A DNA stretch of 63,365 nt, filler included, from Folioceros fuciformis (lineage: Eukaryota), in the NCBI GenBank assembly GCA_049999805.1. It is 7 parts of 7 records of this genome, joined end to end, with 100 filler letters (N's around TTAATTAATTAA, not from the genome) between each part and the next. Parts side by side here need not be neighbours in the genome. Positions count along the whole stretch, not along the records: positions 48,724 to 52,048 come from JBNGIO010006077.1; 6 more parts are not named here. The stretch is one strand, 5' to 3'. Shown here piece after piece: positions 7,001-62,090 of the stretch (position 1 is the stretch's first letter; every line of letters starts with the position of its first letter). The translations under genes were made by a program, and so were the position numbers. Below the pieces are notes generated by a model that did no database searches, had not been told where the DNA came from, and saw nothing but the letters and a program-made list of their open reading frames with translations.

Positions 7001-10000
7001 CGACTTGTTCCCCAATCCCGATGACACCCTACTGCCTTGTGTTTGCACCTCCCGATGGCCCTTTGCAACTGGATCAACCCAAACACCGTCTTCTTCTTGC
7101 CTGCCCGTCTCCTCAGAACCCACCTTTAACAAGGCTGCTGGTTGCTCCGCTTCACTGGCATGATCCATACTCGCCTCCCCAAGGGCTGACCCAAGGGATG
7201 TATTCTGGCAGGCAGCAAGCGCCCAAGAAACCGGTCCCTCTTCTCCATCTTGCACAAGTTCTACTTGAAAACTGCCATCACCGAGAGCCAACAGCGCTCT
7301 CGCCTCACTTCGGACTGGCTGACAACCTTCAATCGCCTCACTCGGGTGTCTCACCACAGCAGCCCATTCTTCGACAGCAACCCCAAAGTTCTCGTGATCA
7401 CCGATCATACAGCTGCTGCCAGCCCTCGGGGCGTCCTCCACCCAATCCCATCCTGCACCAGAGGCTACCTCGGCGCAAAGCCTCTGCGCCTTGAAGGAAA
7501 ACAGTGATGGTTCAGCTTGCACCGACACCAAGGCCTCCCCGACGGGCTGGGCCACCGCCTCGATAACATTCCTCATAGCCAAGACCTCAATCTCCCACTC
7601 CATCTCAGTGGGAGATTCTTGCGCCACCTTCCCAACTACCCCAATCTCCGGTTCTGGAGAACTCTCGCTGGCTTGTTGAAGTCGCCTACTAGGATGGTTT
7701 TCCATACTGTCCACACTTGCCTCGCGGCTAAATCCACCCTCCGTCTGCTCCTTAAGTGCGCTCCCCTCACCTCCCCTTGCCGACTTGGGGAGGAGCCCAA
7801 CGCCCACTGCTGGAAAGCCAGAGGGACGATCAGCTGGATCCAGCACCAGGGATCCTTCCAAGGTCCGATAGCCCACACAGCTCTCTGCTTCCACTGACCC
7901 CGGGAATCGTTGACCTGCCCCACCCTTATCTTTGCAAGCTTTTCAACCATCACCAACGCCTCCTCACCTGGCACAGTCGAAGAGGCACCGTCAAACTCCA
8001 GTCCTTGACAGGGAACTGAATCTCTGCCTATCCCTGTGTCCTGCTGCCGACTTGGGTTGTTCTGACGATCCTGACGCTCACCCTGTTGTGCCACCAACTC
8101 CCTCGTCTCCCTCCTACTCTCGTGCCCGGCAAGCGCACCTACCTCCAAGTCCTGATCCTCCCGTGCATCAAACACATGAGGGCCTGACCCGACAGTTCTC
8201 GTCGAGCTTGAACCTTCCTGTTTGCATACCTGTCTCCAGACCTGTTGCCCTGCACCCTTGCATGTAGCCAGGACACTCCCACCAACCAAAGGCTTGCCAG
8301 AGAGCACCGACCCTTCCTCCACCCCCTCAGGACCAGTGTCCAGAGCAGCTCCAGCGGAGCTTCCCGGAGTGGGAAGCTTATTGTAAGCGGTCAGCACTAC
8401 CTCTGAGGTGCTGAGTGGCTTGGTGGCATCAAACACTGCCTTCAAAGCTCTCCTTGCCGATGCACTCTCGAGGCATGCAGGTTGAAACCTGTGCAGCGAC
8501 TTGTCTGTACTCTTGGTTGCAACTTGGCTCTCTGGACTCCCGATTGCCACTTGTTCCTCTTGAGGAGGGTCGCATAGGATATTTGTTGGCGCCATCCCTG
8601 CTTTCCGGGTGTGCTCACCATTGTCAAGATCCACCTCCATAGGCACAGAGTCCTCTGCGAACATGTCTTCTGCCCATCTGAGCTCCTAGGTGCCTGGTAA
8701 TTTAAAACGAGATCGGGGCTGTGAGTAAGCCCAAGAACCCCAAATGAGCCTTGAAGACCACCCTAGATGCCAGTGTGACTCTGCCTTTGCCGAACTTCGC
8801 ATCTCTAATGTAGGCCAGCACTTGTGGCTCCCCCATCCATTGTGGCACACTATCGTCCCGAATTGTATACTCATCACCCAACTCAATCAGTGTGACCACA
8901 AACAAGATGGAAGAGGAGTCAACTAGTCGGTGGCACACCAGACTGTGCCTAGCTCCTCGCAGGACCTTGCTCACGGCTAGTTCACTATACCCCAGCCCCG
9001 CCTGCAGCATAACCTGAGACCTCATCTTAACAGTATCCTAAAAAACGGAAACCTGGTGCCCCGTCACGGCCCCAATTTGGAGGGCACGCGTAGGTAAGGG
9101 TCTGAATTCTCCCACCTTCGGCATCCAGTAGTAGAAAACCTTACCCACCTTCTTCCTCATAAGTACACACACTTTGATGTGCATGTTGGCTGCGTCCACA
9201 CTACCCGAGAAGAAACATTTCTGGATTCTACCTGCCCACTGCTGCGTTCCGGGGTTGGACCTCCAAGGTTTCTTGAACACACCTTGAAAGCCTGGTAGTG
9301 GACCCGGAAGGGCCTTCTCCGATTTGTCCCCTCCATTGCCAAACCTACCACGGAGAGGACAAGTCTGCTTAAGGTGGCTCTTCAAGCCACAAACACCGCA
9401 CCTGACAAGCAGATCCAGATAGTCAAAAAGTTGCGTAAAACAACAAGCTGGGTCCTTCGGATCTCGAATGATGACACCTTCAGGCAGATCCAGGAGGCTG
9501 TCCACCCTCACTCTACAACGCGGGGGCTTGTTGCTATCAAAAAAGTGCGAATCCACCTTGGGAATCTCCACCACTCGGCCTATAGTCCCCAGGATCTTGC
9601 GTAACATTGGAATGAGCTGCACAGGAAGAGCAGGAAGCCCCACCCAGAGGAATTGCCTCTTGATTGTCGACTGCATAATGGTGTTCCCTGGGGACTAGGC
9701 TTCCACCAGCAACGAAATGGAATCTCAAAGAGGCAGCATTGTGTTTAAGATTGCTTGTGCTCTCGCTACCTCATCACACTTGATTTGAAAGGAACCATCT
9801 ACTTTCAGGAACACATATGCTGGTGGGCATCGCGAGACTTGAGTCACCCAACTTTCTAGCTCCTCCACGGAAGGAGGGCCGCCGGACAACAACTGCCCCA
9901 CAACAGATTTGGCGGCGAGATTGTCTTCTTCCTATTGAAAATACCTCGCTTCAGTGATAAACTCCGCAAGGGGGCCCAGTTGAAGGCCTGGCCCCTCTTT

Positions 10001-20942: not shown

Positions 20943-21042
20943 NNNNNNNNNNNNNNNNNNNNNNNNNNNNNNNNNNNNNNNNNNNNTTAATTAATTAANN
21001 NNNNNNNNNNNNNNNNNNNNNNNNNNNNNNNNNNNNNNNNNN
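20943..21042. other. Assembly join 44N-TTAATTAATTAA-44N (also at 31104, 48624, 52049, 59815, 61990)
   Basis: Identical six-frame stop linker centred in 100-bp gaps; artificial. Confidence 0.95.
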
Positions 21043-31103: not shown

Positions 31104-31449
31104 NNNNNNNNNNNNNNNNNNNNNNNNNNNNNNNNNNNNNNNNNNNNTTAATTAATTAANNNNNNNNNNNNNNNNNNNNNNNNNNNNNNNNNNNNNNNNN
31201 NNNTTTAGCATATGGAGCATGAGGTGTGGTTGTGGGCCCTCTGTGCGTCGTTGGTTGGAGTTGGCTTCTCCCTAACTGTTTACTATAATGAAAGTCTATG
31301 GGTTTCACATTCATGAGCCTACACATCTGGACGGGTGGAGGGCGCCTGCATGGTTCATTGTAATGAAAGTCAATGGGTTTCGCATTCATGAGCCTACACA
31401 TCTGTCCAGATGTGTAGTATGCCATTGATTGCCGAGGGTGATAAATGAA

Positions 31450-36768: not shown

Positions 36769-39700
36769 TGATGAATTGAGGAAAAGATGTTGTGGTCATT
36801 GATTTTATTTCGGAAAAGAGAGAGTATCTGTTGTATGATGAATGGGCTACATCTAGCATCTTGAGGAGTTCAGTCTATCGAAGAGACACGACCGTTCAGC
36901 TAATAAGTCACGACTGTTCAGGTCTCGATCGTTTGCGGCTTACACACTGCACTACTGCGCACACACCCCCTTAAGCTCAAGCGTCGAGATAGGGGAACTA
37001 CTAACAATCTGTAAGTCCTAATGCGGAAGTAAACTGAGCATGCTTAATCTTCGCAAGTGGCTTGGTGAAGATATCAGCCACCTGTTCCTCGGTTGGTACA
37101 TACGTTAAGCGCACTTCGTTACTCTCAACTTTGGAACGCAGAAAATGGTATCTGAGCTCAATGTGTTTTGAGCGCTCGTGAAATCTCAGATCCTTGGATA
37201 GAGAGATCGTAGCTTGATTGTCACAACGCAGCTCGATTGGTCCTTGATGTGGATAGCCAAGGTCAGTCAGCAGTTGGACTAACCACAAACCTTCCTTGGC
37301 GGCAGAGGCGGCAGAAATGTATTCCGATTCTGCAAAGCTGAGAGCTATAGAAGTTTGTTTCTTTGCTTTCCAACTGATTGCTCCACCGGCGAGTAAGAAA
37401 ACGTAGCCACTTGTGGACCTACGAGAATCAAGGTCGCCGGCCCAGTCTGCATCAGTCCAGCCAATCAGTTTGTCTTGAGCTCCTGGGCCACCATGGTATT
37501 TAATACCCTTCTTCTTCGTACCTTGTAGGTATCGGAGGATACATTTTACAACAACCCAGTGAGGTAGACCAGCATTTGAAAGGAATTGGGAAGTCAATGA
37601 AGTTGGTAAGGCTATGTCCGGTCGAGTATTTTGTACGAGATGCTGGAGACTACCCACAGCTCCTGAATAGGGGACAGAGCTCATTTCTTCTACTTCTGCA
37701 GGAGTTTGAGGGCACAATGTTTTGCTAAGTCGAGGACCTGTCTGCATTGGAGTGTCAGCAGGTTTGCAGTTTGACATGTTGAATTTATCAAGTACATCCA
37801 GAATGTAGCGCTCCTGGTGTAGTAAAATGCTCTCTTGAGTTGGGTTATACTTCACTTGAACACCCAAGCAGAACTGCATAATTCCGTTGTCTGTCATAGA
37901 GAATTGCTGCATAAGTTCAGCTTTAGATTCTGCCAAGTATTTCTTATTATTGGATATCATAATAACATCGTCTACATAGATGCCCATCATCAGCATTCGA
38001 GAATCTATGTTTCTGATGAATACACTGGCGTCCACATTACTCTTGGTGTATCCTAACCTTCTGAGGGATCTGTAACATTCTTCGTACCACTCCTTACCAG
38101 ATTGTTTAAGGCCGTACAAGGTTTTGTGAAGCTTACAGACCAAGTGTTCTTTGCCAGGTGCAATGTACCCATTCGGCTGTTGGATGTATATCTCTTCCTG
38201 GAGTATTCCATTTAAGAACGCAGTTTGCACGTCCAGCTGATGAACGTGAAGGTTTTGCAAAGCTGCCAAGGCTAACATAAGGCGAAGTGATGTTAGTTTC
38301 ACGACTGGAGTGTATACCCTGTCTTCATAATAATCGATTCCATCCCTTTGAGTGAAACCCCGGGCAACGAATCGGGCCTTCAGTGTCGAGACTTGGCCAT
38401 CGGCATTGTACTTTTTGCGTAATACCCATTTGCTACCCACAGCATGGCGTCCCGGGGGTAAAGGTACAAGGCTCCATGTGTTGTTGTTGACCAAGGATTG
38501 ATATTCGCTATCCATGGCCTTTCTCCAAGCTGCTGCTTCAGGTCCAGCTAGGGCTTCATCGGTTGGAACTATGTTAGGTCGATCAGCCGTATCACCTGCT
38601 AAACCGCGTGTTGTGCGAAATTCCAAGTCATGGAATTTGGTGCCGGGAATTCCCTTTGTGGTCCTTGAAGAGTTGCGGACAGGGGGGTTAGGAACTGGTG
38701 TATTTCGCTCCAGAGGGGCGTCCTCCTGATTCGTTCCTGTTGCAAGTTGGCGTGAAGGGAATTGCAAATCAGGTGTATTGGTTTCACTACCAGTCTCGCT
38801 ACTCGCTCCCCCTGTGAGCTGCAATGGAGGGAACGCCTGTGTAGAGGCTAACGGTGAAGTCATAGCGGAACCGCCGGGGGGTAAAGGCGGAATGGAACCA
38901 AAGGGAGGATCTATGGGCCAATCCGGACCGGGGTCATCATCCGGGGTAGGAGCAGCCGGTGGTGGGAGCGGAGGCATGGGTGGTGCCAAGGCTGCAGATG
39001 GAGAGGGATCCGGGGCGGGAGGGGCCGGGGTGGTAGCAGGGAGAAAATCCAGGGCAGAGATGCGCTCGAAATCTGGGGCACCCCCTGAAGGGAAAAGGAG
39101 GGCTGCTTCATCAAAGATGACATTTCTGCCCAAGGTAACCCTGCGAGTGGCTCTGTCAAGTAGTCGGTAACCTTTCACCCCGTCACTTTCGCCATAGCCA
39201 ATGAAAGTAAGTCTCACAGATCGGTGATCTAATTTTCGACGCCCTTCCGTTGGAATATGTTTGTAAGCCGGACAACCAAAGATGCGAAGGTGGCTGACCT
39301 GTGGCTTTCTACCTGTCCAGATTTCATAAGGCGTCTTGTCTGGTAGGGTGGAGGTGCCACATCGGTTTTGTACATAGCAAGCAGTTGCCGCAGCGTCAGC
39401 CCACAAGACGTTGGGTAGAGCGGCTGTGGCAAGAGAGCTCCTAGTGGCCTCCATAAGAGAGCGATGTCTTCTTTCCGCTTTGCCTAATTGGGCATGGGCA
39501 TATGGCACGATTTTTTGGTGCAAAATACCATGGGTGGATAGATAGGCCTCGAACGCAGGAGAAGTAAGTTCGCCTGCGTTGTCAGTTCTAAGAATTTTGA
39601 TGAGCTTCCCAGTCTAGTTTTCCACTAACGCTTTATAGATCTGGAAGGAGGCAAAGGCTTCTGACTTGTGCCGTAGAAAGGACAGAAATGTGTAATGACT

Positions 39701-41845
39701 GAAATCATCCAAGAGGACGAACAGGTGTAGTTTGCCTGTGAGGGATTCTGTTTGCATAGGGCCACACAAGTCAGCATGTACGAGTTCAAGAATACTAGTG
39801 GTAGTGCTCACTGATCTAGGGTAAGGTTGAGTATGCTGCTTGCCTAGCAAGCAACCTTCACATAAGGGTAGATCACTGGAAAATTTTTCAAGGAGACCTT
39901 CGACCATATGTGTAGCTTGCATACGTTTTATTCCTTGGAAGTGTAAGTGGGCGAGTCGTAGGTGCCAGAGTCTAGCAGATAGATTGTGGTTCAGATTGGC
40001 AGTGAGGCTTACACTCGTTGGTTGGGCAGGTGTAGAAATCCCGATGCCCAATGGAAACAATCCCCCTGTACGAGGACACTGTATACATCTTGTGTGGCCA
40101 TCTGAGGTAGTTGTATGGATCAGACATCCATACTAGTTAAAGGTAACTTGGGAGTTGGGGTTACTGACGATTTGATTCACAGAAAGTAGGTTTTTGGATA
40201 ATCCAGGAACATGTAGGACGTTTCTAACATGAGCAGTGAGGTCTTGTATTTGTATTTGGATGGTACCCTGACCCACAGCCATATGAGTAGAATCATCACC
40301 CATGAGAACAGGTAGGGGTACTTCCAGAGTAGAATATTCAGAAAACCAATCCTTTCTTGGTGTCATATGTTCAGTGGCCCCAGAGTCAAGGAGCCAAGTA
40401 TCTGGGAGTATGGAGCTGGTAGCCAAGGCAGAGGTGGCAGTAAAGAGGTAAGTATTTTTGGAACTTGTGGCTAAGGCAGATGTGCTAGGGGTACTCCCTT
40501 GGGAATTAAATATTCCAGCAGCTCTGTCACGCTGCCTTTTTCTGCATTCTGGGGCTATATGCCCTTTCTTAGAGCAGTAATGACAAATTTTATCCTTATG
40601 ATTAGGATTTGAAGATGGTGGGCGATACAGTGCAGAATTCCTAGGTCCAGCTTTGAATCTAGGAGCTCTTCGTCCACCAGCAAATAGAACTGAAGGAGGA
40701 GAATGTGAATTGTCTCCTACAATCAAGACTTCCTCATTGCGAATTTTTAGTAAGAGGCTTGGTAAAGTCAAAGGTGCTGCTGCAGTAGCCTGACTGGCTT
40801 GTGTAGAAACGAAAGATCTCCATGATTTAGGGAGGGCCATGAGTAGTTGGGTAACCTGTTGTTCTTCTTTCAAGTTGAGTCCCGTGGAAATGGCTTCATC
40901 TAATGTCCTTTCCCAGGTTTCCAGGAATTCAGAGACTGAAGCGCCCTCCTTGAGCTTGATGGAGGCTAGTTTTTGAGCAGCAAGCAGTTGAGAAGGTAAA
41001 CTTACCTCCTGAAGAGATGATGTTAGTTTATCCCATAATAGTTTTGCAGTCGATTGTCGTTTGACAGTCGGCAAAATCCTATCTCCGATGTGAAGGATGA
41101 GCTTTGCGTGGGCAGAGGCATCCTTCATAATCCATGCAGCTTCGTCTGCATGCCCTATGGGTGGTCTAGGTTCTGTGCCATCTACTACAGACCATAACGC
41201 TAGTCTTTTAAGGAGGGATTCTACCCATATTGACCATGTGGCATAATTTAGATGTGTAAGTTTCTCTATAAGATAATTTCTTGCTTGTGTAGCAGAGAGG
41301 CTTGAGGATCCCATCCTAAAAGGGGAGGAGACCTTACAGGTCTAACACGTGAATAATGCCTGAGTAATCATGATGTATGATGTGCTTTCTTGATTGTAGT
41401 ATGAAGTCAAAATCATCATCTCTGATTGCAGTTTGCTGTAATTTGTACAGGTTGGGTTCTACATCTTTGCAACGCTGATAAGAGAAGTGTGGGACTTGAA
41501 ATGTATATACAAATCGCTTCAGCGAATTTGTATCCTGCATCTTAAGTTTGTGATTTTGTCCTGAGAGGTTATGAAACCTATGTATTCTACAGGATTGGTA
41601 TAATGGATTGTGGGTCTCCATTAGAGAGAATCATCTGCTCTGATACCAAGTGATGAATTGAGGAAAAGATGTTGTGGTCATTGATTTTATTGCGGAAAAG
41701 AGAGAGTATCTGTTGTATGATGAATGGGCTACATCTAGCATCTTGAGGAGTTCAGTCTATCGAAGAGACACGACCGTTCAGCTAATAAGTCACGACTGTT
41801 CAGGTCTCGATCGGTTGCAGCTTACACACTGCACTACTGCGCACA
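36769..41845 (-). mobile_element. Full-length Ty1-copia retrotransposon C
   Basis: 195-bp LTRs at 41651-41845 and 36769-36963 (TG...CA, 3 mismatches). PBS TGGTATCAGAGC at 41637-41648, PPT at 36964-36972, flanked by ACAA on both sides. Confidence 0.97.
37001..41314 (-). pseudogene. Copia C gag-pol polyprotein (single frame, two premature TAG stops)
   Basis: ORFs 41314, 40060 and 39523 share a frame: UBN2 gag, CHYCSKKGHIAPEC, WLLDSGAT, LWHLRLAH, HADLCGP, LRTDNAGE, YVDD, DADWAGD, RNase H. Stops at 40133 and 39614. Confidence 0.95.
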
Positions 41846-44800
41846 ACAACAGCCTTCTCAAGAGGTGTTGGGCACCTATCCTAACTGGGAACGATCCGTC
41901 CGTCTTGCTTCCGACACTAAAGAGGAATGGAACGGGGAGGTTGAGGCGGAGATCCAACTTGCTGGAGGAGCCGGAGCCCTGGACCAGACATAGCGAATCC
42001 GGTCATGGCTCAGGGCTCAGTTGGGTGAAGGACCACGTGACCCATCACTGAGGAACAATGTGGCTTCTCGGTTGGAAGCTGGTCCACAATCTGGGCAGGA
42101 TGTTGATATGGACCCCCCAGGGGTATGCTCATAGTACGAAGCCTCCCACGTCCCTAGAGGCGGGGTGGGAGAGAAGTGGAGGCTGCCTGGGCTCAGGGGA
42201 AATGTTCTGCGAGGGCGCCCTAGGTGCCTTTGGCTTGGCATCTATAGCTAGGGGTGAAGAGGACCTACGTGTGGGGTCTGCTGCAGGGGGTGGTTGGTAT
42301 GGACGGGAGATTCAGGGCGATCAGCTAGTATCCAGAGCCAGCGAGGTCCATGTCGAGTCCTTTCAGGGAGGGGCGGCGTCTTTGCCTGATAGCGTCCCTG
42401 CTAACCACAGGGCGTCCGATGGGAAGAAACCTGAGGAGATGGAGGCACTGGACACAATTGGGCAGGTCATGGAGGTCCTGACAAAGCAATTCATGGCAGT
42501 GTTCATGGCTCAGATGGATGAAGAATCATGCGACTCTTCTATGCTGAACATCACGGGTGCGGGTTGGGAAGTTGGTGCACAATCAAAGCTCGAAGTTGCT
42601 AAGGATCCCTCAGGGGTTTTCTTGCAGGGTGCTTCCTCCCTGCTCCTGGAGGCGGGGCTAGAGCAGGGTGGAGTCTGTCATGACACCTGTGGCAGGTTTT
42701 GCGAGAGTGGCCAAGGTGCCGCTGGTTTGGATGCTTCAGCTGGGGGAGAAGAGATCTCGCCTATAGAGCCTGGGGCAAGGAATCATCGATCTGGCCCGGG
42801 GCTCCAGGATGAGCAGCTAGTCCCCAGCGCCAACGGGGTCCAAGTCGGGGCTTTTCAAGGTGACATGATGGATTCGATAGGAAACTCCACCATCAAGCAC
42901 CTGGCGAATGAGGAGATGGATGTTGATGCGACGGGATATTGTTTGCCCACAGGAACATAAACTTTCTGTGGAGCATATCCAGAGAGTGAAGAAGGTTTTC
43001 CTTCCAGGAAGTACAGAGTGGGTGGCAGCCAGAGTAGAAGATGTAAACAATGGGGAACATTCTACTCAGCGAGTTTCAGCAACCCGGGGAGGCGTGTCTG
43101 TTATTGTTCACCCAGAACACACTCACAATATCTTGGAGATGGGTCACGATGAAGGTGGAAGGTTTGTGTGGCTGGTGATGCAAACACCCCAAGGCCCACT
43201 TGGCATATGTAACATCTATGCTCCCAATGCTGCCACCGATAGGAGCAATCTCTGGTGTAGGTTGGGGGAACATCTGGATGAGCAGATCTTGTGGATGCTG
43301 GTTGGGGATTTCAACTTTGTTGAAAGACGGGAAGATATCCGGGGGGAAAGCCCTGTAGATATTCGGTCGGTGCCTATGTTTTGGCAGGAACTAAGAGATA
43401 CCCTTTTGGCTGTTCAGGACCCATGGTTAGCCCTTCTCAGCACATCGTCAACCGCAATCCTTGAAGTTCAGCTGGACTAACCAACAACAGCAGAATTTGG
43501 GAGAGCGCAGTCTGGACAGGTTCTATGTTCCTTCCGGGTGGTTGGCCTATGTGCAGGCGTACAGTATTCTCGCTGGTACGATCCTATTGGACCATCATCT
43601 AATTAGCTTGCACTTGAGGCTTGCGCCGAACTCGGGGCGGCAAAGGAGGCATATGCAAAACTTTCGGATGAACACGTTCTTGCTCGAGGAAAAGGGGTTG
43701 TTCGAGGAGGTCAAAAACATCTGGTAGGGAATAGAACAGGGGGAAGAGCCTGATGTTTCCCAATTGATATGCGCTAATAATGAAGCAACTAGATACTTGA
43801 GGAGGCGGGGGGTCCAACGGGTGAAGGAGTTGCATCAACGAGAATGCTTTTGGAGAGAGGAACTAAGCTGGTTGCAAAGGAAAGGGGAGGAGCGAGACTT
43901 CACAATCGAGGAAGAAGCCTGGAAAACGGAGGTACAATGCGCATTGGCCAAGTTGGAAGAAGATAGAGCTAGAGGTTGGTTTAAATAAGCTAAGGTCAAG
44001 TGGGTGAGGGAAGGGGACAGCCCGTCTAAGTTCTTCTTCGATAAAGTGGCTGCTAACCAGTATAGCTCGAGACTTCCTACTCTTCTAGACGCCCAAGGAG
44101 TGATGCAAGAGTCGTTGGAAGGTTTAAAAAAGCACGTTACCCTCTTCTTTGTGGGTATTTTCTCGAGTGTGGGGAAGGTGGAGGGTGGGGAATAGCTGTG
44201 GTCAGCTTCCTACAGATCACTCTCGGCTAAGGTGTCCGAGGCCCAACGCAGGGCGCTGGATAAGCCGATTATAGCTGAGGAAGTACTCCAGGCTCTGAAG
44301 GGGATGCCAAGGAATAAATCCCAAGGGCACGATGGTATCCCGCTCGAGTTCCTGCTTTGGGGTTGGGAGTTTATGGAACCTTTATTCATGGAGGCTATGG
44401 CCATAATCTGGGAAGAGGGCAGCATGGGGAGTTGGTTTTTAACATGGGGGTCATCACCCTGCTCCCTAAGTAGGACACTCTATCAATCTCCAATTGGCCC
44501 CCAATCACCCTGCTTATAACTACATACAAGGTGATAGCCAAGGTACTGGCCAACCGCATCAAGCCTTTTATGGACGATTGGATTGAGAAAGAGCAGAGAG
44601 GGCTCATCCAAAACCGATGCATTCTGGACAACCTTCTACTCTTGCGGGAAGCTAAGTATAATGTCCAGGTTTAGAAGAAAGCTATAGCTTTTATCTCCTT
44701 GGACTTTTGCAAGGCGTATGATTCCATTGAGTGGCACTTTTTGTGGAGATGCTTGCGTAGCCTTGGGTTCGGGAATAACTTCTGTAGGTGGATTGCCATT

Positions 44801-47429
44801 TTGTGTGAAGATGCAGGAGCCAAGGTGGCCATCAATGGATCTCATACGGAGCGTTTTGGCATTCATCGGCTGGTACGTCAGGGGTGCCCCCTAGCTCCTT
44901 TTTTATTTATTATCGTGACTGACTTCTTCCTTCGGGCAGTTAAGCAAGACCACGCAGTCGAGGGTGTTCGCAATCCGGATGGATCGCAATTAAGGGTTTC
45001 AACGTTTGCAGATGATACCCTTCTTTTTTGCTCGGCAGAGGAGACCTCTTTGAATGCTTTGCTCTGGCAGGTCGAGGTTTTTGGGGAGCTGTCGGGTTGC
45101 AAGGTTAATTGGGGGAAGACCCGCATGATGTGTCTACACACGGAAGGGGTGCTACCTCAATGCATCCACCATATTCTGAGGGTGTTGCAAGGGTCCACTC
45201 ACAAGTATCTAGGTCTTCCCTTCCATGAAGGGAATGAGAACGGTGAGATAGGGAAGTATGTGTTCCTCATATTCATTCGTAAAGCGGCGAGCTTGCAGAT
45301 GTTGGAACTTAACCTAGCAGGAAGGTTGGTGGTGATTAACCATATCCTAACAGCCTCTCTTTGGTATTATTTGTGCTTATGGGCCCCCTCCAAGGCAGAG
45401 GTGAAATGGTTGCAACAGGTGTTGACCTCATTCTTGTGGAAACGTGCGGGGGACAACTCAGCGGGGTGCTCTAAGGTGGCTTGGCATCACATTATTTAGG
45501 CACGATGGTTGGGAGGCCTAGGGGTGGTTGATCAGGTTGCCAAGATGAAAGTCTTGCTTGCTCAGTGGGTTATCAGGGCAGCGAACCCTACCTACTACCC
45601 TTGGAAAAGTCTGCTAACACAGCATCTAGAGTGCACGCAAGCTGTTCCTCGGAGAAGGAGATCTATTGCCAACATTCTTGCAGACAAGCCTTTACTTGAT
45701 ACTGCACAGTGCTCCCCACTCTTCAAGTCAATCTGGAGCAGCTACTTAGAAGTCAAGCGGTACATTACCCCAGGTAACCCCATGCATGTGGATGACGTTA
45801 TGGGAGTGCCTTTGCAAGGATTCTCGAGACTGTGGGCTCAAGAATTTAGGGCCAGGGTGTATCGGTCACAAATCTTCGGTTTGGCGTGTCAGAAAAGAGT
45901 TATCCAACTTGGTCACTCATGGAACAGATTAGAGGCCCGTTGAAAAGAGGTGGCGGAGGGCAAGGAAGAATTTGGTTTAGTGGCTAGACATGTTAGGCTC
46001 ATTTTTTCATGGTTGCAAGAGGGACTAGAGGATAAGGTTCAACAGGTTTTAAGGCAACAACCTACCCTAGACGTTGAGGGGTGGTATACGTACTCCATGG
46101 GTAGTAAGGATGCAGATTCTGAGGAGAATGAATAAGAGGATGACCTAGAATTGGATAGGGCTATTTGGCTTTCAGGTACGGCTGACAAAGAAAACCTTCG
46201 GACATTCAAGGTTATTTCGCCTGAAGGACTTTTGGAAAGTCAAGGCAGGAACGATGGTGATGTCCAAAGAGGGGAACTAATGGCCATCACGGTCCTCTCT
46301 AAGTCTGGTCGTGCAGGGCGATGGCTCACTCAACTCGAAGGCCCTAGTGGACAACCACCCTCGGACAAACCAGTTGTCCGATGTTGGTTCCAGCTTGCGG
46401 AGAACTGGGATTTGGCATTCAGACCAGATCTCTACAAATGGCCCAGGTGTCCAGGGTGCAAGGCGGATAGTCTTCGATCGTTCTTCAACTTCCCAACGGC
46501 CGACATATTCCTCTGGCTGGTGCGAGCGCAGAAAATCAGACAAAGGCAACCAATGGCTCCCTGGCTACAACTCTCTGTGCAGCGACAAAAGGAAACTATC
46601 AAGCTACTTTGGAAGTCAGACGGAATTCCCCCCAAGGTTAGGACAACGGTTTTGTGGTTTTTTTAAGCTTGTTTGCCTAATGCGGATAGATGGGATGGGT
46701 TGTAGGTTGCTACGGGAGAAGACCAGTGTCGACTATGCTCCTTGGGTGCTCCAAAAAAAAGTCAGCACATGTTCTTCCACTGCAGCTTTGCCCAGGAGAT
46801 ATGGAGTGAGGTAGGTGGGCAGGTGGTTGCACATAATTCTTTCCGGCACCAACCTCAGGATCACGAAACAAACTACCCTCTTTTGGTTGGATGCAACCTC
46901 GGACAAAGCTCTACTTCCGTCACAATGGTGGGGTTTACTGTGGTCTTCTTGTCTTTTCCACCTTTGGGTCAACTGGTCTTCCGTGGTCTATGGAGGTTCG
47001 GTGTTAGCCTCATCTAAGCCTTTGCTATGGCGCATCTGGGAGCACTTATTGATTGCAGCCGAAGGTCTGAGGCAATCCCATCGGAAACGATTCAAGTGGA
47101 GGGAGTGAAAGTCGGCGGGTTTCCTAGTTCCTGGTAATGAAGAACATTGGAATCATGTTTGCCCTTGGGGTAGGTGAGTTCCCATGGTCTTCGAGTAAAG
47201 TTGAGGTTTAAAGCTAAATGGATTTGGTAGGCGAATGGTCTTAGCAGTCTGCTAGGGTCAAGGTGATAAGGAGTTTTTTTTGCGTCTTGTCCTGTGGTTT
47301 GGGCATGAGGTCGGTTTTTACTCCTGGTCATGGTACTCATGCTTTGTAAATACGTGAGCAGGGTCCTCTTAGTACTGCAAGAGGATGATCATCTTAATGA
47401 GAATTATTTTCTTTGCGAATTTTTTTTTG

Positions 47430-48623: not shown

Positions 48624-48723
48624 NNNNNNNNNNNNNNNNNNNNNNNNNNNNNNNNNNNNNNNNNNNNTTAATTAATTAANNNNNNNNNNNNNNNNNNNNN
48701 NNNNNNNNNNNNNNNNNNNNNNN

Positions 48724-49735
48724 CTTCATCACCAGCTCCGTCATGCTGGGTCGATCTCCAGGACTCTGCTCGAGGCATTGAACTGCCATATCGGCCACAA
48801 AGCGCATAGAGTTCCTGCTGTTTACATCCATTCTATATTGGTGCCTCAGCGGTGCATCGAGAACCTGATCTATTTCGTCATGCTTGGTCGCCTGCACTGC
48901 TGGCACCACATTGCTCCCCTCCAATCCTATGGGAGGCTTTGCAGTGAGCAGCTCCATCAGCACTACCCCGAAGGCGTACACATCGCTCTTAGCCGTGAGC
49001 TTGCCGGTGATGAAAGTCTCTGGATCCATGTAACCTGGGGTGCCGGCGGACGCTGTGCTCACATGAGTTGCAGCCAGGGCGGCCGTTCTTGAAATGCCAA
49101 AATCTGCCACCTTCGCATCTAGGTTGTCGTCCAACAGAATATTGGCAGACTTGACGTCGCGGTGTATAATCTGTGGATTGGCCCGAGAATGAAGGTACGC
49201 AATCGCATCCGCTGTCTGGAAGGCGATGGTGAGCCTCCTCTCCCATGTCAGTCCGCCACCTTGGCGCCTTTTGCCCCGCAGATGCTCCTCGAGTGTTCCT
49301 TGTGATACAAACTCGAACACCAGGGCCGCCAAGTTCGGGGTGAGGCAACATCCCAACAGCAGCACGAGCCCGCGGTAATTCACTTGCGCGAGAATGCGCA
49401 CCTCGTTCAGGAATTGGGGTTTGTGCGCCTCAGATCCAACCCGCTTGCTCAACTTGATGGCCACCTCGTGGCCGTCTGAGAGCGTGCCCCTGTACACCGT
49501 GCCTAACCCTCCAACTCCAATCTTGTTGCTTTCAGAAAAATTCCGAGTGGCCTGGCGCAGTACGCTTACAGACATTGTAGTCACATTTATCCCCTCCTGA
49601 ATTGCTGCCGTCAGGTCCTGGTCTGTAGTTTCCAATCTGGCCGCCTTGATCCGTGAACGGCACACAGCAAACACGGAGACTGCGATCACGACAGCAAGGG
49701 ATCCCGCCACAGCCGCCGCCACCACGGTCGTAACT
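48724..49735 (-). CDS. Receptor-like Ser/Thr kinase (WAK/LRK10L-like), TM + kinase exon; ectodomain not seen
   Basis: TM helix, IGVGGLGTVYRG, VAIK, HRDVKSANILLD, DFG, GTPGYMDPE, SDVYAFGVVL, DRPSMTE. Acceptor-like ccttcaacag lies just upstream. Confidence 0.9.
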
Positions 49736-49916
49736 GTTGAAGGAAAGGAAGACAGTTTTGTCGCTCGTCAGACCGAAGGACCCGGACTGACCGGAAAAGT
49801 GTGACACTTTTCAGGAAGCAAAACAGATGTACCTGAAGCATACTGAAGATGACCACCTTTTGAAGTTCCAAACAGCCTTTGCAAAAGTGGTATGTTTTTT
49901 TTGTTGTTTTCCTTCC

Positions 49917-50240
49917 CACTAGTGCATTGTTTATTGAACTGGAGTGCGCCGGTCTACCGGCGCACTCTAGCCTGCTCGAGCAGCAGTGCGCCGGTCGATC
50001 GGCGCACTGGAGCCGGGTCTGACCCCAGGGTGCCGGTAGACCGCCGCCCTCTTGCCTGGTGCGCTAAGTCTACCAACGCACTGCTACCAGCTCGGGCTCC
50101 AGTGCGTCGGTAGACCTGTGCACTCAGGCAGCCGGCTTGAGCTCCAGTGCGCCGGTCTACCGGCTTGAGCTCCAGTGCGCCGGTAGACCGGCGCACTCCC
50201 GTCAGCTCAGACCCCAGTGCGCCGGTCTTCCGGCGCACTC
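49917..50240 (+). repeat. Transposon terminus CACTAGTG with array of about 7 palindromic subterminal repeats
   Basis: Perfect hairpin GAGTGCGCCGGT-CT-ACCGGCGCACTC at 49942-49967, with variants near 49985, 50030, 50101, 50146, 50174 and 50216. Confidence 0.75.
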
Positions 50241-50303
50241 CTGTCTACTCAGGTTAAAGTGGCCATATCGGTAGCCACAGTAATGAGTACTATTCTGGTT
50301 GCA

Positions 50304-51509
50304 GAAACTTGGAGATATAACAGACTTGGAGTCATTGCTGAAGGCATTTTAGGATTTTGTATATTCGGCAAAAAACTGAAAAAAGAATGAAAGAAGAGAA
50401 GCAAAAGCTGGCGGCTGCTGATATGGATGCAAGGTTATCGGACTTCTGAGTTCCAGCGAGTAACAAAAAGGTGAAATATTAAGTTATTCAAAGGAATATT
50501 CTGGAAATGAAGGCCTTTCTTGTCAAACGCCCCTATACGCTGCTATTTGCAGACTTGCCTCGAGGATTACAGCGGCATGAGTATGACAAGCAGATGAATG
50601 TAGCAGAGTTGGATGAAATGATTCGAGGGTTCAACAAATGCACATTGAGTAATATTTTTAGAGTTATTCTAATGCATGGAGTTGATTTCATATTGGAAGC
50701 AAGGGAGGCACTACGACCATGGTGCAAGAAGGGGAGAATATAGACATTGGTATGGGAGAAGACTAACATACCCCCAAACGTAGGAGCAGTGGAAACAGTT
50801 GAATATGTGACTATTGGAAGTGCAATGCAAATAGAGGCTCAGGAATCGAAGGCTCCACATTTTGCGAATTAAGGATTTCTCTTACCACGAGTGATAAGGC
50901 ATGATGTGGTGGTGAAGAAGCACCTTTTCCATTCTGAAGATGCGCATTCATCTCTCCTTACCTGAAACCATTAGGTTTGATGAGTATGCTCATAAATATG
51001 TTTTCTTGTGAAGGGGACTAGGTGGTTGATGCATGCGCAGGCTCGGATCTCTTCTCCAAAGTGCAATTCAACATGGAAGGCATGCGGTGGCAATCGATGT
51101 GGACGTGAGGTGCACTCCATATATTATGTAGCGGATTATCGGGCTAGGGTCTTTGCCTGACGTTGATGAGGAGATTACGACAAAGTCGTTTACACAAGGC
51201 CCATCAAAGTTTTGGGCGAAGCAAGTGTGCGGGGATGGCAGCGTTGATTGCAAAATGCTGGTGTTCAGTATATTGGGCAAGAAAGGAGAGGTGATATCCC
51301 AGATTGATGATAGGCCAGCAGAGGACCTTTACACCATCACCATTTGGGATGAGAATAGTACTTTGCTGCCCCAAACTACAGAGGACCCCAACTTTAAGGT
51401 ACTACGTGTTGGTGGTGATGACTTTGGCGATACGGATGCACAACGACTGAGAGATTTAGATGTAGTTGTGTATTCCGAGGCCAACCAGGATGACCTAGTT
51501 TTTGTATGA
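50304..51509 (+). pseudogene. Beta-class DNA N4-cytosine/N6-adenine methyltransferase-like pseudogene, paralog 1
   Basis: Manual translation across stops and frameshifts: VIQRNILEM...YTLLFADLPRG...LVWEKTNIPP...VEYVTIG...PYLKPLGLMSMLINMFSCEGD*VVDACAGS/GSLLQSAIQHGRHAVAIDVD. Motif order matches the N6_N4_Mtase family. Confidence 0.8.
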
Positions 51510-51802
51510 GACTCTTGTACTTAACTTGAACATGAAGTATTTTGAATAGCTTATGCACCGAGTGATCGGCACACCATATGTTTCAGTTGCCAAATATCAA
51601 GTTTCGCATAGAAGACTCACAATGTTTACTGCATCTATTTTGGTTTTATTGATATTTGTTGAATAAATAATATATGCACACATGTCGGTGGCCTTTTTTA
51701 TTTGTGACAAGAGATCTAAGCGTATATAGAGCGCAGATCAAGACAAATTTTAAAACCCAAAATGGGCTTTGTAGAATCCGCCGATCTGGGTTAGACCTTG
51801 TT

Positions 51803-52048
51803 TCATTCTACCATATCCGGGCCCTGGCTAGAGGTACCCGACGACAATGAGCCCGACTTGTTGGAGCCCAGTAATAAAGGGTTTAATTCTACCATATCCG
51901 GGCCCTGGCTAGAGTTACCCGACGACAATGAGCCCGACTTGTTGGAGCCCAGTAATACAGGCGCTCCGTCGTGCTCCTTAAACGTTAGGCCAGGTTTGGG
52001 CCGGTAGGAACTCAGCTGCTGTCCCAGCTTCATCACCAGCTCCGTCAT
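51803..52048 (-). CDS. C-terminal tail of the receptor-like kinase, with an internal 81-bp (27-aa) duplication
   Basis: Begins with the same 21 nt (MTELVMK) at which the kinase at 48724 is cut. LLGSNKSGSLSSG.SSQGPDMVE occurs twice. Confidence 0.75.
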   Translation of the reverse strand: MTELVMKLGQQLSSYRPKPGLTFKEHDGAPVLLGSNKSGSLSSGNSSQGPDMVELNPLLLGSNKSGSLSSGTSSQGPDMVE

Positions 52049-55000
52049 NNNNNNNNNNNNNNNNNNNNNNNNNNNNNNNNNNNNNNNNNNNNTTAATTAA
52101 TTAANNNNNNNNNNNNNNNNNNNNNNNNNNNNNNNNNNNNNNNNNNNNTCTGCCTACTACTGTATGACTCCATATACCAATTGACGCTGTCTGTCGTGGT
52201 GTGGGACCACTGACCGGGCCCGGGCCAGAGGTAGAGCTTCGCATTCCTCGTCCCTGTAATATGCCAGACCTGATTCATCAAAGTGCGGAGCCCCGTTTTC
52301 TCATCCATCACGTCCAGCAAGTGGAGGACGTGGCAGATCTCCTGCAATTGAACGTGTTCAGGATGAAGTCAAAAATTTGTGGAGATGCCTGAGGTGATCA
52401 TGGCGGCATAAGCTGGCTACCTGCAATTGCATGTAGAGTGTCACAACAGTAGGTATTGGAGAAAGGTTAAAGATGAAAGGAACTCGAGCCCGTCTCGACA
52501 TACCTTGCCGAGCAAGCATATGTGCCACTCGTTGCTGGCGTCGGCATCGAGTTCCTTGGACCGCGAACTCATCCAGAGAGTAATCGGGTTGCACGAGGAT
52601 GCCCTCACCGACCACCTCCATGCCCTCCGATCTTCGGCAAGCACGAAGTGATTTTCTGGATGTCCAAACCAAATTAAGAAAGCAAGCATGACTTGACATC
52701 AGCATCAGCGTTTCACACATCACATGCCAGCATCGATCTCCCCTGCCTGAACTCAAATCTGGGCTCAACCAAAAGGAGCTGTGAGCCTCATCCAAGAGCG
52801 CACCTATTGTGGTTGCAATCCTTTAGAGGCAAGCCGGAGAGACACCTGTACGCGTGTAAACACATCCACGGGGCCAAACAGAGAAAGGTGAGAAGCAAAA
52901 GCTCGAGCTGCACTATTCTTGCCAAGTAAAGATATCGGCTGACTGACGCCGACTCTCTCCGACCTTGCCATCCGCCGGATCCAAGGGCTCAACCAGAGAA
53001 GCTCTCAAAGTGATAAGCTTGTTCTGGTCATTGGAAGGCCGTGGCGCGAAGCAGGATGCAGGTACATTCAAGTGCACGCGCGAGCAACGTCACACACATG
53101 TACAGGTTCAATCACATACGTCACAAGCACATAAGCCATGCCTGGAGCTCCAGCTGGGCTGCAACAGTTTTTGCCCAGCACAGAAAACGTATTCACGTGT
53201 GCAGACACGCATAAGGGTCGCAGTTAAGCAAGCTTTTTCAGCAGGGCAGGGCAACGCGCCTGCAAGCACAAGCGCTAGCACCGATCTCATGCATTGGACA
53301 TGTATGTCACAGACTTAAGCGCGCACGCACGCGCACATGAACTCCGAAACAGTCGATCTCAAACGCAAGCGAGTCAGAACCACACAAACGGAACTCCGAG
53401 AATGTCCACCTCTTACAAACACGCAGAGCACACAAATGATACTCCGAAAGAGCAGAACAGAGAGCAGCATCCAGAGCACCCACAGCAACTCCAAGAAAAC
53501 GCCAAAAGCGCGCATCCAGAAACTTGGGAAACTTGCAACCGAATAGAGGAGAAATGGAGGCTTGCCTTCCTGGGAACCACGCTGGCTAGCGCTGCAACGT
53601 TCGTGACGACGCTCAAGTTTTCTCTCGACGGCATTCTCCCAAACTCGTTGAGGAAGTGGTCAAAGTCCATGAGCTCCCAACAATGAGAGCTTGAGACCTT
53701 GAGCGTTCCCAGCGTCCATGAATCCTGGCGTTCCCTGCGTGCTCCGAGTGGTAGGCTTTATCACTGACAACGAAGTTCTTCGTCAACGATAAGGCCCACG
53801 ACTTGGAGCACGCAGGGTTGGCTGTAGCTAACGAGGAAGGGGCTGTGCGCCTCCACCTCCTCATCCTCCTCGCCCACCTTCCTCTTCCACTTCCTCTCCT
53901 GATCCGCATGCTCCGCCGCCTCTCTGGCCTCCTCCCACAACCTCACCTCATCCGTCATGGCTCTCCCGGTGCGAGAGAAGGAGGAAGCTGGAACCAAGGC
54001 GAAAACCCGAGGGGCAAGGGGAGGGTAGAGCCCCGTCCTCCGATCCGGGAGGCGTCCGGGCCGGAACAGATGGACGCCGGGGCCCCGGGCCCACGGCCCC
54101 ACGCGACTCGCTCCTCTGCGGTCGTGGTCCCGCAACGGCCAGCAAGAAACTGTGTGAAAGCCCCTGACGGTCGGGGACCCAGCTCCGGGGACCCTGCAAT
54201 GTGGGCGCCGCCGTTGCTCGCGTCTTTTATCAGCCAATTAACGGAGCCTGTACCACTTCCCGTCCGTCGATGACATCGTCAATCCAGGGCTGGCATTGGG
54301 TCACAGGGTATCAACAGGTTCCTTCATGGCTTCCTCCCGATACGGCCAGAGGCCAGTGGCCAACGGGAAAATGAGATGCCCTAATAGAGCGAGAAAGACA
54401 CGCACCTGTCACGGACCACCAGCATTCACCTCTTAATCACCGACGGTCTGACTCCAACGGCGACAGGTCCTTCGCCTTGTGAGGGCATCAAGCAAGGAGA
54501 GTACACCTTACCGTCCACGAGGCAAGCTTGCCCCTTTCGTTGAATTGGAAGCAAGGCCCGTTTCGTTATGCACAGCTGGAGCTTGTGCAGCCAGATTGCT
54601 ATGCACATAGTAGAGGAGTCGTACATGTTACAGGACGAACTGCGTTGCGCTAAGGTTTGATGCCCATCATCTGAATCAGCTGCGGGACCATCGCGATCAG
54701 CTGTTACCAGTATGCTTCACCATAAACATCACCAGGAGGCGACGGCCTTGCGTTCAACCAACTCAATCTCAATGAGCCGGATATAGCTGTAAGCTTTGTA
54801 CCGTACACTACTGCAAGCCGCTGAGGCCTGTAAGCTTCCCCATTTCTGGTGGGGAGAAGTATAGAGCATATCACGCTTCAAAGGCAGGATGCAGGAACGC
54901 CCGTCTTAATCCAGGAGGCCACGAACCTGTCACGAATGTGGCAGTGATGCCACTCCCTGAGAAGGAAAAGAAAGATTTGCGCTGTGGGCTTGTTGACCCT

Positions 55001-59814: not shown

Positions 59815-60699
59815 NNNNNNNNNNNNNNNNNNNNNNNNNNNNNNNNNNNNNNNNNNNNTTAATTAATTAANNNNNNNNNNNNNNNNNNNNNNNNNNNNNN
59901 NNNNNNNNNNNNNNCAACTCGCAGAGGCCGTCCTCTTCAGCAGAGGCGGACCGTGAATGAACGCAACGAGACGGAACAGAACCACTGAACTACCCGAGTC
60001 CACGCTTGGTGGTGCAACGGAAGGAAAGGGGCAAGGGGAAACGACACCGACGGAGGGAAGGGGCCAGGTGGAGGTCCGGGGAAGCCTATATGTCATCAGG
60101 GCAGGAGCCATCTCCCCTTGGAGATTCAACCTCTGCCTCTCGACTATCTGGAAATTTAGAAGGGACATGAGTTCTATATATCGCCGGTTGGTTGGTTAGC
60201 TGTGGTAGCTTTTGACGCTTCCTGCGGTCGGGGGAAATCCTGAATGCCACTGCTCGCAATCTGGCACGGGTAGATATGCGTTTGCCGACCACAACATCGG
60301 CCGTATATCATTGCTGGAATCTACGTTTGTTTCCGCCTCTGATTCTCTTCCGAGAGGAGGTGTGCTATATATGGATTGAACCGCAACTTTCACTACAAAA
60401 AGAGAATGTGTGCTGTACAGAAAGGAGAGAAGCGATCATCCATGTGTACGGCCTGACGTCGGGCGATTCTTCCCAATCGAGCATTGATTTACTGTGGAAT
60501 TGCGAGTTGCCTGGCAATTTTGACAAGGGGCAGCTTGCAAGTTGCCGCTCTACACGGCCTCCTTGGTAGGGGGCTGTATTAGAGCTTGGTTAAGACATAT
60601 TCGATACTACACTGGAAGGCGAGTACTGTGGGCCTCTGAGTTTGAAGCCACGGTCCGCAGCGAGAAACGCTGACTCAGAGCGATCATGTTCCCAGCAAG

Positions 60700-61680: not shown

Positions 61681-62090
61681 CTCTTAAACTCAAATAAAAA
61701 GGAGAATTACAAAAACAACACAATACAAGTGAAGAGGGAGTTAGACTGCATATACTAAGAGGGTTCATCCCTTGTTTTATGGACCTATGGGTAACTCTCT
61801 CATTTCGTGTTCAATATGGGATAAATGACCCCAACCAAACCCTACAATACTTCTTTTGCCCAACATAGCAAAGTCTAATAAGCTATATATATATATTAAT
61901 CATAACCTTAATCACTCTTACCACTAATTAGTACAAACTCAATAAGCTGGATTAGCACTAATTAATATCAACGTTAATCATGCTTAACANNNNNNNNNNN
62001 NNNNNNNNNNNNNNNNNNNNNNNNNNNNNNNNNTTAATTAATTAANNNNNNNNNNNNNNNNNNNNNNNNNNNNNNNNNNNNNNNNNNNNT

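Follow-up and report, generated by a model that had tools for sequence, protein, structure and literature searches.

A decayed methyltransferase-fold gene behind a palindrome array in a multi-copy, probably transposon-derived repeat of Folioceros fuciformis

The window analyzed in this study, a 63,365-base stretch of the Folioceros fuciformis assembly GCA_049999805.1, contains a decayed methyltransferase-like gene directly behind an array of palindromes in a multi-copy repeat. The gene is an intronless beta-class amino-methyltransferase-like pseudogene of what is called here the DLPRG family; it occupies positions 50283 to 51509 of the plus strand, on the fourth contig of the window (48724 to 52048, 3,325 bases), and is delimited by its reading frames, by alignment with relatives, and by a hidden Markov model (HMM) of the family. 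We read it as a copy, now dead, of an accessory gene that a transposon carried and that would have encoded a methyltransferase-fold protein of a very rare, unnamed family, and we give this reading a probability of about 0.6. A CACTA-type element is likely but unproven, since the 3.3-kb contig closes on itself.

The reading frame is broken, and the beta-class motif order described in the earlier note can be followed through its stops and frameshifts in three collinear frames between 50366 and 51509. Frame 2 (50366 to 50949) contains YTLLFADLPRGLQ, KRPYTLLFADLPRGLQ, FRVILMHGVDF, LVWEKTNI, and VEYVTIG and is interrupted by stops at 50447, 50480, 50741, and 50870. Frame 1 (50950 to 51045) reads ISPYLKPLGLMSMLINMFSCEGD, a stop at 51019, and VVDACAGS. 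Frame 0 (51045 to 51509) opens with GSLLQSAIQHGRHAVAIDVDVR and reads GSLLQSAIQHGRHAVAIDVDVRCTPYIM, a premature stop at 51129, and RIIGLGSLPDVDEEI, after which it runs on for approximately 110 codons to the TGA at 51507 to 51509. The well-supported part of the gene thus contains six premature stops and two firm frameshifts, at approximately 50947 to 50950 and 51044 to 51045. The start codon, ATG at 50283, is tentative and adds a stop at 50350 and up to two further shifts, which are likewise tentative; a weak collinear match of 50299 to 50418 to the N termini of the relatives (E = 0.18) suggests that the gene perhaps once began at this codon. The copy in the window is a pseudogene and probably does nothing.

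The order of the motifs is permuted. The catalytic-side half (50390 to 50833, plus strand) carries DLPRG at approximately 50549 to 50563 and W.KTN at approximately 50750 to 50764 and corresponds to positions 26 to 180 of the family HMM. It is followed by the AdoMet (S-adenosylmethionine)-binding half (50950 to 51185, plus strand; motifs X and I to III), which reads YLKPL...D.CAGSGS...GRHAVAIDVD, with D.CAGSGS at approximately 51025 to 51050 and the frame change at approximately 51045. All of these elements, i.e., the motif IV-like DLPRG, then W.KTN, then the AdoMet motifs, are present as they had been described. The C-terminal extension (51186 to 51506, plus strand; approximately 107 codons) has no assignable domain. 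It belongs to an open frame of 125 amino acids (51132 to 51509), of which the first 15 or so residues, RIIGLGSLPDVDEEI, can be aligned to the relatives and the remaining 110 or so match nothing: no match was found in Pfam, NCBIfam, or PHROGs, no usable match was found in the Atlas, and the tails of the relatives cannot be aligned to it. An unassigned extension of approximately 120 residues, as claimed before, is therefore what the sequence contains.

The relatives were found by an exhaustive phmmer search with the 161-residue N-terminal piece against 1,835,955,588 proteins, which returned five matches at E ≤ 1e-3. Four of them (P0005 to P0008; E = 1.7e-8 to 7.8e-8) are true relatives with intact frames and share their layout with the window gene along their whole length. 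The common order begins with DWP.G, a hydrophobic strand ending in DLPRGL, H.P.D, W.KTN, and TNVF and continues with YQKP..L...L...S..G.W..D.CSGSG, RNV.AVDVDP, and LP..DQEIG. The fifth match, P0004 (1,034 amino acids with repeats of approximately 30 residues), was rejected as a relative; its E value of 1.7e-8 comes from three short low-complexity stretches, and its only family match is DUF6077, so that one of the five nominally significant matches of this search is spurious.

When 636 six-frame tiles of the whole window were scored with an HMM built from the four relatives, only the pseudogene locus matched, in three collinear segments: 50390 to 50833 (E = 7e-25, profile positions 26 to 180), 50950 to 51045 (E = 1e-7, positions 235 to 266), and 51045 to 51185 (E = 1.6e-8, positions 267 to 313); the next-best match in the window had an E value of 0.016. 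When the profile was searched against an index of 5.8 billion clusters, P0005, P0007, and P0008 were recovered together with one further fragment, P0009; all four derive from run assemblies, in which each is represented by one sequence on one contig. After these relatives, the search returned five bacterial-type methylases that cover only 20 to 24% of the query. By sequence comparison, the window gene can be assigned to a tiny, unannotated protein family, of which it is a decayed member.

Against curated libraries, the window gene on its own is marginal. The PF01555 profile that had been proposed as a check gives a divided answer: among the three pieces of the window gene, only one (50962 to 51066) matches, with 21.1 bits (E = 3.3e-4) against a gathering cut-off of 26.7, and three of the relatives lie above this cut-off (P0007, 50.1 bits; P0008, 47.3 bits; P0005, 30.0 bits), with P0006 ending ahead of the PF01555 domain. 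Because the gene is split over three frames, no single piece of it is able to reach the cut-off. In P0007, the DNA methyltransferase profile phrog_498 spans residues 69 to 312 (E = 2.1e-14); in the window pieces, only the 35-residue motif I piece matches PHROGs. None of the three pieces matches NCBIfam, and a phmmer search of the PDB with the N-terminal piece (P0001) gave no match. Word-index protein searches with the N-terminal and C-terminal pieces found nothing, because the decayed pieces share too few exact words with their relatives.

No relative was found by profile scans of 185,579 prokaryote genomes of GTDB (212 pattern matches, none of them a relative) or of the Joint Genome Institute (JGI) metagenomes (90 pattern matches, none of them a relative). 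The profile scan of IMG/VR gave one weak phage methylase locus (L001), which matches in the motif I region only, and none of 470 phage records obtained by tblastn covers 80% or more of P0007; all of them lie on the motif I region. Similarity to prokaryote and phage proteins is limited to the last 20 to 26% of the protein: hhalign of the family against three bacterial matches covers only 66 C-terminal columns, and approximately 60 to 80 alignable columns are shared with the bacterial matches overall. Judged by language-model features, the closest protein clusters are for the most part phage PF01555 clusters, and the ten best Atlas clusters all belong to PF01555. A gene of prokaryote type, as the earlier note had put it, or of phage type, is supported.

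The fold was examined on the relative P0007, not on the window copy. The AlphaFold (AF2) model of P0007, computed from four sequences, has a predicted template modeling score (pTM) of 0.62 and a mean predicted local distance difference test (pLDDT) value of 55.6, with values of 75 to 89 in the core. In Foldseek, the model matches beta-class DNA N6-adenine/N4-cytosine methyltransferases (best E = 1.6e-10). Rows 1 to 20 of VIA-align (Z-score = 15.2 to 18.0) include CcrM, M.BceJIV, M.MboIIA, M1.HpyAVI, M.RsrI, TTHA0409, M.PvuII, the Mod subunits of EcoP15I and Mbo45V, and the rotifer N4CMT (Z-score of approximately 16), and the MT-A70 group (METTL3 and MTA1c/AMT1) scores lower (Z-score = 11.5 to 12.2). 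The model thus places the family in the beta-class, i.e., permuted, N6-adenine/N4-cytosine amino-methyltransferase fold. A PDB profile of the relatives aligns their AdoMet-binding half to M.RsrI and other enzymes. Motif I reads DGCSGSGS, DMCSGSGT, and DGCAGAGS in the relatives, and in the window it reads DACAGS and continues across the frame break to GS; it aligns to DFFAGSG of M.RsrI. Since this motif is intact, intact members of the family are likely, judging from their sequences, to bind AdoMet.

The catalytic loop is different. At the position of motif IV, the canonical (D/N/S)PP(Y/F/W) is replaced by DLPRG in all five family sequences that cover it. The position itself is taken from the structure match, because the hhalign alignment covers only the 66 C-terminal columns; in the aligned ranges (60 to 319 of the model and 36 to 297 of M.RsrI), DLPRG falls at DPPY of M.RsrI, which we take to be residues 65 to 68. 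Two of the bacterial matches read DIPYG, which provides a precedent for the replacement of the first proline by leucine, so that only the change from tyrosine to arginine is radical. We know of no precedent for an arginine in place of the aromatic residue of motif IV. Given this non-canonical loop, methyl transfer is unproven, and the gene is filed here as encoding a methyltransferase fold and not a DNA methyltransferase.

The pseudogene adjoins a terminus-like array. The sequence CACTAGTG, a candidate CACTA-type left terminus, is read directly at 49917 to 49924 on the plus strand, 19 nucleotides ahead of the first strict palindrome. The subterminal array (49929 to 50246) consists of approximately eight units, degenerate ones included, at a spacing of approximately 42 nucleotides; each unit is centered on the 24-nucleotide palindrome AGTGCGCCGGTnnnnCGGCGCACT, which is made of two inverted half-sites of 10 to 12 nucleotides. 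Five strict sites of AGTGCGCCGGTnnnnCGGCGCACT occur in the window, all of them between 49943 and 50239, and none was expected from 100 shuffles. Half-site matches lie at 49943, 49985, 50027, 50101, 50146, 50174, and 50216, and the 42-nucleotide family comprises six copies in addition to many inverted pairs. The palindromes are rich in CCGG and GCGC, and the G+C content is 0.66 in the array and 0.44 in the ORF (open reading frame), which starts approximately 44 nucleotides behind the array. The sequence CACTAGTGCATTG has three matches in the window at two or fewer mismatches, against 1.82 expected, which is not significant. On the other side of the ORF, a degenerate palindromic unit is found at 51551 to 51576; in five X1 contigs, an intact half-site, ACCGGCGCAC, stands just before 51586. 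When the palindrome pattern was searched in metagenome contigs, 23 loci were obtained, all of which are lone chance matches with nothing else alike.

The genome was viewed from outside the assembly through contigs of public runs, of which the DNA runs X1 and X2, made from one sample, contain 86% and 82%, respectively, of the sampled words of the stretch. Contigs were placed on the window at an identity of at least 80%, and their summed depth is not a copy number. In X1, 481 contigs were placed, with 58, 59, 171, and 193 of them in the identity classes of at least 99%, 95 to 99%, 90 to 95%, and below 90%; 364 of the 481 are thus less than 95% identical to the window. X2 gave 470 contigs, with 57, 69, 161, and 183 in the same classes. 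The summed depth of X1 is 50 to 102 over the part of the contig that carries a kinase exon (48724 to 49833), 45 to 574 over 49834 to 51720, and 88 in 51721 to 51831, and the exact-match contigs of the window copy have a depth of 10 to 21. In the low-coverage run X3, depth is found only over 49834 to 51720, apart from traces (0.8 to 2.5) in 49390 to 49611. As a rough reading, there are tens of copies. At least 11 skips that correspond to internal deletions of 141 to 1273 nucleotides occur among the joints listed, and the palindromic unit recurs in other genomic copies with different spacers. These observations support a dispersed repeat of about 1.8 kb (approximately 49.9 to 51.7 kb of the window) that is diverged and often internally deleted. 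Its multi-copy, diverged, and deleted state rules out a single-copy host gene, which the earlier note had named, if unlinked to transposon ends, as one outcome that would overturn its proposal.

The borders of this repeat are located approximately. Multi-copy depth starts within 49834 to 49944, and the match of one X3 contig starts at 49893, which places the left border within approximately 25 nucleotides of CACTAGTG. The right border of the multi-copy DNA is placed approximately at 51700 to 51760 from the fall in depth, and no recognizable terminal inverted repeat (TIR) is seen there; the depth of X3 is 118 in 51610 to 51720 and 0 in 51721 to 51831, and that of X1 falls from 145 to 88. Beyond 51691 and 51695, where loose ends occur, the sequence is still window-like to approximately 51722. 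Some copies retain a better frame than the window copy. An extra G behind 50947 is found in two X1 and three X2 contigs, and an extra G behind 51044 is found in one X1 and two X2 contigs; because these insertions lie exactly at both frameshift sites, the frame of those copies runs on as in the relatives.

We read the repeat as the decayed remains of a DNA transposon, either non-autonomous or truncated and most likely of the CACTA/EnSpm type, of which the methyltransferase-like gene would be an accessory (passenger) gene. The copy in the window would sit within an intron of a receptor-kinase gene or adjacent to one. The CACTA features that are present are the candidate 5'-CACTA terminus, whose occurrence by chance is not negligible, the left subterminal array, and the multi-copy deletion derivatives, to which the right side adds the one degenerate palindromic unit that is intact in other copies. 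A CACTA start followed by short inverted subterminal motifs is the classic layout of En/Spm elements. The transposon identity and the superfamily are probable, and the earlier description of a transposon end with palindromic subterminal repeats stands in part: CACTAGTG and the array are present, and no inverted partner, target-site duplication, or transposase that would mark a working terminus was found. The same holds for the proposed transposon family that carries the gene, for which a multi-copy, diverged, and deletion-prone repeat was found and a working terminus, a target-site duplication, and a transposase were not.

Several observations weigh against this reading. There is no second CACTAGTG and no second palindrome cluster in the contig, which may mean that the copy is truncated or that the contig is mis-joined. 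The only candidate for a second terminal inverted repeat, at 51655 to 51690, is AT-rich and weak (63% column identity) and was rejected; in the absence of a second end, no target-site duplication, which is 3 bp long in CACTA elements and 9 to 11 bp in Mutator-like ones, is readable, and the flanks obtained with this weak candidate end are TCC and GCC. No transposase was found with Pfam in the contig (48724 to 52048) or among the nine largest ORFs of the window. Since the contig is a closed loop, the flanks of the repeat are possibly mis-joined. Two joints, 49892 to 50435 and 49897 to 50371, between which the letters are unknown, tie DNA that lies upstream of CACTAGTG, from 49835 onward, to the ORF. 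The copies with the extra G account for a minority of the X1 depth (24 of 123 and 20 of 238 at the two sites), and the occurrence of P0005, P0007, P0008, and P0009 as single sequences is unlike a high-copy transposon in their genomes. The DLPRG loop and the PF01555 scores of the window pieces, both described above, belong on the same side. As for the joints, we favor paralogous copies of the whole locus, kinase and repeat together, in which the array has been shortened, since the depth of the kinase part is approximately five times that of the exact contigs; the joints would also fit a repeat whose start lies to the left of CACTAGTG or a separate insertion of the palindrome block.

Four other explanations were weighed against the transposon-borne accessory gene. 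Chance open frames or bacterial contamination can be regarded as already refuted: the window pieces lie below the Pfam cut-off, as this explanation would have it, but the family HMM matches at E = 7e-25 in three collinear frames, the gene is multi-copy and decayed and shares its contig with a plant-type receptor kinase across which exact bridging contigs are found in two runs, and no relative occurs in the prokaryote genomes or JGI metagenomes scanned. It is unlikely that the repeat is no transposon at all but an endogenous virus-like or horizontally acquired relic, or a segmental or tandem duplication (e.g., with the kinase array), with CACTAGTG and the palindromes as an unrelated repeat or an insertion resembling a miniature inverted-repeat transposable element (MITE). 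Such an origin would agree with the phage PF01555 clusters that are nearest by language-model features, with the two joints that skip from 49892 and 49897 to 50435 and 50371 in the absence of a second terminus, and with the 3.3-kb loop, in which the kinase, at approximately five times the depth of the exact contigs of the element (50 to 56 versus 10 to 21), suggests a tandem or paralogous locus. However, the hundreds of short contigs at 80 to 95% identity, which differ in their deletions and in their flanks, look more like a dispersed than a tandem arrangement; other copies carry a half-site of the same palindrome behind the ORF; the contig shows no viral hallmark gene; and IMG/VR yielded only the one weak phage methylase locus.

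Capture of the gene in the manner of a Pack-type element, in which a transposon amplified a whole host or earlier-acquired methyltransferase-like gene as inert cargo that was never useful to it, is likewise improbable. Pack-CACTA capture has been documented, no transposase accompanies the gene in the contig, a kinase gene fragment lies on the same contig, and most of the depth is apparently frameshifted at both sites, as would be seen after amplification of a dead copy. What Pack elements carry, however, is usually a fragment, whereas the gene described here is a near-whole ORF from start to stop, intronless and collinear with its relatives, and it is placed and oriented like a 5' transposon gene, 44 nucleotides behind the array. 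An element of another superfamily, either Mutator-like with long structured termini or undescribed, to which the CACTA likeness would be a coincidence, has still less to recommend it and appears very unlikely. By our estimate, CACTA would occur within 30 nucleotides of the array start by chance with a probability of approximately 0.03, the 13-mer match is not significant, no matching CACTA end was found, and PF01555 accessory genes of red algae are reported to occur on Mutator and Zisupton elements as well and to have been misclassified at first as belonging to Mutator-like elements (MULEs). Against this stand the En/Spm-like layout of the terminus and the multi-copy border that falls within approximately 25 nucleotides of CACTA.

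Four kinds of known systems bear comparison with the transposon-borne gene proposed here. Bacterial and phage beta-class enzymes of PF01555 (CcrM, M.RsrI, M.MboIIA, M1.HpyAVI, and M.PvuII) have the same permuted order with the catalytic loop on the N-terminal side, the same fold over approximately 190 to 240 residues of the P0007 model, and the common motifs TNV(F/W)R, (H)P.QKP, and D....GSG; they differ in carrying (D/N/S)PP(Y/F/W) where the present family has DLPRG, and the setting of the present gene, unlike theirs, is eukaryotic, intronless, and multi-copy. In eukaryote genomes, beta-class PF01555-type proteins are also represented by two 4mC writers of bacterial origin, MpDN4MT1a/b of Marchantia, a tandem pair of host genes with TSPPY, and N4CMT of bdelloid rotifers, an allelic host gene with a chromodomain that is described as having no eukaryotic homologues; their catalytic motifs are canonical or active. 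The present family has DLPRG, shows no chromodomain match in Pfam, and is multi-copy and decayed in this genome; a specific link to either protein, which the earlier note had brought up, is not borne out, as the family has neither TSPPY nor a chromodomain.

The closest parallel is PAG2 of red algae, an accessory gene combining PF01555 and SET that is carried by giant Plavaka elements of the EnSpm/CACTA superfamily and also by Mutator, Zisupton, and Fanzor-encoding elements; the elements are reported to be 17 to 19 kb long and to encode a DDE transposase and two other accessory genes (10.1101/2025.02.11.637652). The two cases are alike in that a PF01555-type accessory gene is found on CACTA-superfamily transposons, or probably so in the present case, with most copies degenerate, and the red-algal elements also carry tandem inverted-repeat arrays beside another accessory gene. 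They differ in that no PF00856 (SET) match was found in the window pieces or in P0005 to P0008. Compared by description, the present unit of approximately 1.8 kb has no transposase, PAG1, or PAG3 on its contig and resides in a plant-like host.

The placement of the gene directly behind a terminal region full of short inverted motifs also recalls elements that encode TnpA or VANC. TnpA of En/Spm binds the subterminal repeats of its own element and counters silencing. VANC of VANDAL elements is cited as a self-binding anti-silencing protein in the red-algal report (10.1101/2025.02.11.637652). There is no sequence or fold relation between these proteins and the present one, and the binding of the palindromes by the latter would be a pure conjecture.

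The protein encoded by intact elements would bind AdoMet and act on DNA. It would either write N6-methyladenine (6mA) or N4-methylcytosine (4mC), using DLPRG as an atypical catalytic loop, or bind the palindromes of its own element in a sequence-specific manner. Taken further, a land-plant transposon lineage may have kept a DLPRG protein that recognizes its 24-nucleotide palindromes and either writes 6mA or 4mC or clamps the DNA in an AdoMet-dependent manner, which would mark the ends or shield them from silencing by host 5-methylcytosine (5mC). In such a protein, the arginine would replace the base-stacking tyrosine of the catalytic loop; the protein would have been fashioned from a restriction-modification enzyme and would do the work of TnpA or VANC. 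We consider this elaborated scheme rather improbable, and the self-marking or anti-silencing role suggested in the earlier note is speculation.

Possible signs of silencing were seen in X3, which looks like a bisulfite-type library of the same sample as X1 and X2: C>T changes are found at 143 places, whereas G>A changes number 40 and each other kind 1 to 28. All 30 C>T places among the 40 differences listed out of 612 are CHH, and the plus-strand cytosines of 50300 to 51650 comprise 157 CHH, 36 CHG, and 36 CG sites. Within single X3 contigs, the CG and CHG cytosines that lie between converted CHH sites do not appear among the listed conversions. Methylation of the repeat at CG and CHG sites, and with it silencing, is at this point a lead and not a result. 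The ratio of observed to expected CpG is lower in the ORF (0.60) than in the kinase exon (0.82). No RNA data set is listed as containing the stretch. The depth of X4, a run guessed to be RNA, is 0 over 49834 to 51831, which is uninformative on expression either way.

The host setting is provided by the last exon of a receptor-like kinase gene, with a transmembrane segment and the kinase domain, at 48724 to 49733 on the minus strand, which continues over the contig ends into 52048 to 51803. The exon matches Pkinase (E = 5.9e-46), and its best PDB matches are Pto, BRI1, SYMRK, FERONIA, and BAK1 (E of approximately 1e-53), with IRAK4 behind them at 1e-37; these plant-type matches support a plant-like host. 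An acceptor-like site is read from the sequence at approximately 49734, and an X4 contig departs from the window sequence at approximately 49739, which together suggest that an intron contains or adjoins the repeat, which is antisense to the kinase. An exact X1 contig (51527 to 51834) bridges the repeat into the 3' flank of the kinase. An exact 21-mer is common to both ends of the contig (48724 to 48744 and 52028 to 52048), and the joint from 52027 to 48724 is crossed by contigs of X1, X2, and X4; the 3,325-base contig thus forms a closed path in the assembly graph, and its source may be a tandem or paralogous locus or else a wrong join made through repeats.

A tandem duplication of 81 nucleotides (51800 to 51961; 96% identical) is found on the minus strand in the C-terminal tail of the kinase frame; it adds a repeated segment of 27 residues ahead of the kinase stop at 51803; X1 and X2 contigs show five to six differences from the window at the end of this duplication. 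An Rfam scan of the contig gave no match. The window as a whole is made of seven separate contigs joined by spacers of the form N44-TTAATTAATTAA-N44 (20943 to 21042, 31104 to 31203, 48624 to 48723, 52049 to 52148, 59815 to 59914, and 61990 to 62089), and because these contigs are unlinked, features that neighbor each other across a spacer carry no genomic linkage. The third contig contains Ty1-copia-type genes (gag, Pol beta-barrel, RVT_2, and SH3-like) at 37001 to 41341 on the minus strand and a separate RVT_1 reverse-transcriptase fragment at 44675 to 45499 on the plus strand. Three long open frames of 501, 401, and 349 amino acids lie at 4258 to 8685 on the minus strand in G+C-rich DNA with a strong negative GC skew; those of 501 and 401 amino acids have no Pfam family.

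With the red-algal PAG2 as a precedent, the idea that a CACTA-type transposon may carry an N6/N4 methylase gene is not new. What appears to be new here is the land-plant-like host, the stand-alone protein without SET, and the conserved DLPRG loop; transposon-borne PF01555 genes have so far been reported from red algae, and no report of such a gene on a land-plant transposon was found in the limited library of literature searched. Bacterial-type N6-adenine/N4-cytosine methyltransferase genes are rare in eukaryotes, and the rotifer and Marchantia cases raised the question of eukaryotic 4mC. Since the window copy is dead, the value of the finding lies in the family, of which this copy is a sixth, decayed member beside five other sequences in approximately 15 billion predicted proteins, and in its link to the repeat. 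Should intact copies exist and prove active, they would give plants an activity, encoded by a transposon, that modifies or clamps DNA. An inactive loop would instead make the family a clear case in which a restriction-modification enzyme has been turned into a sequence-specific binder.

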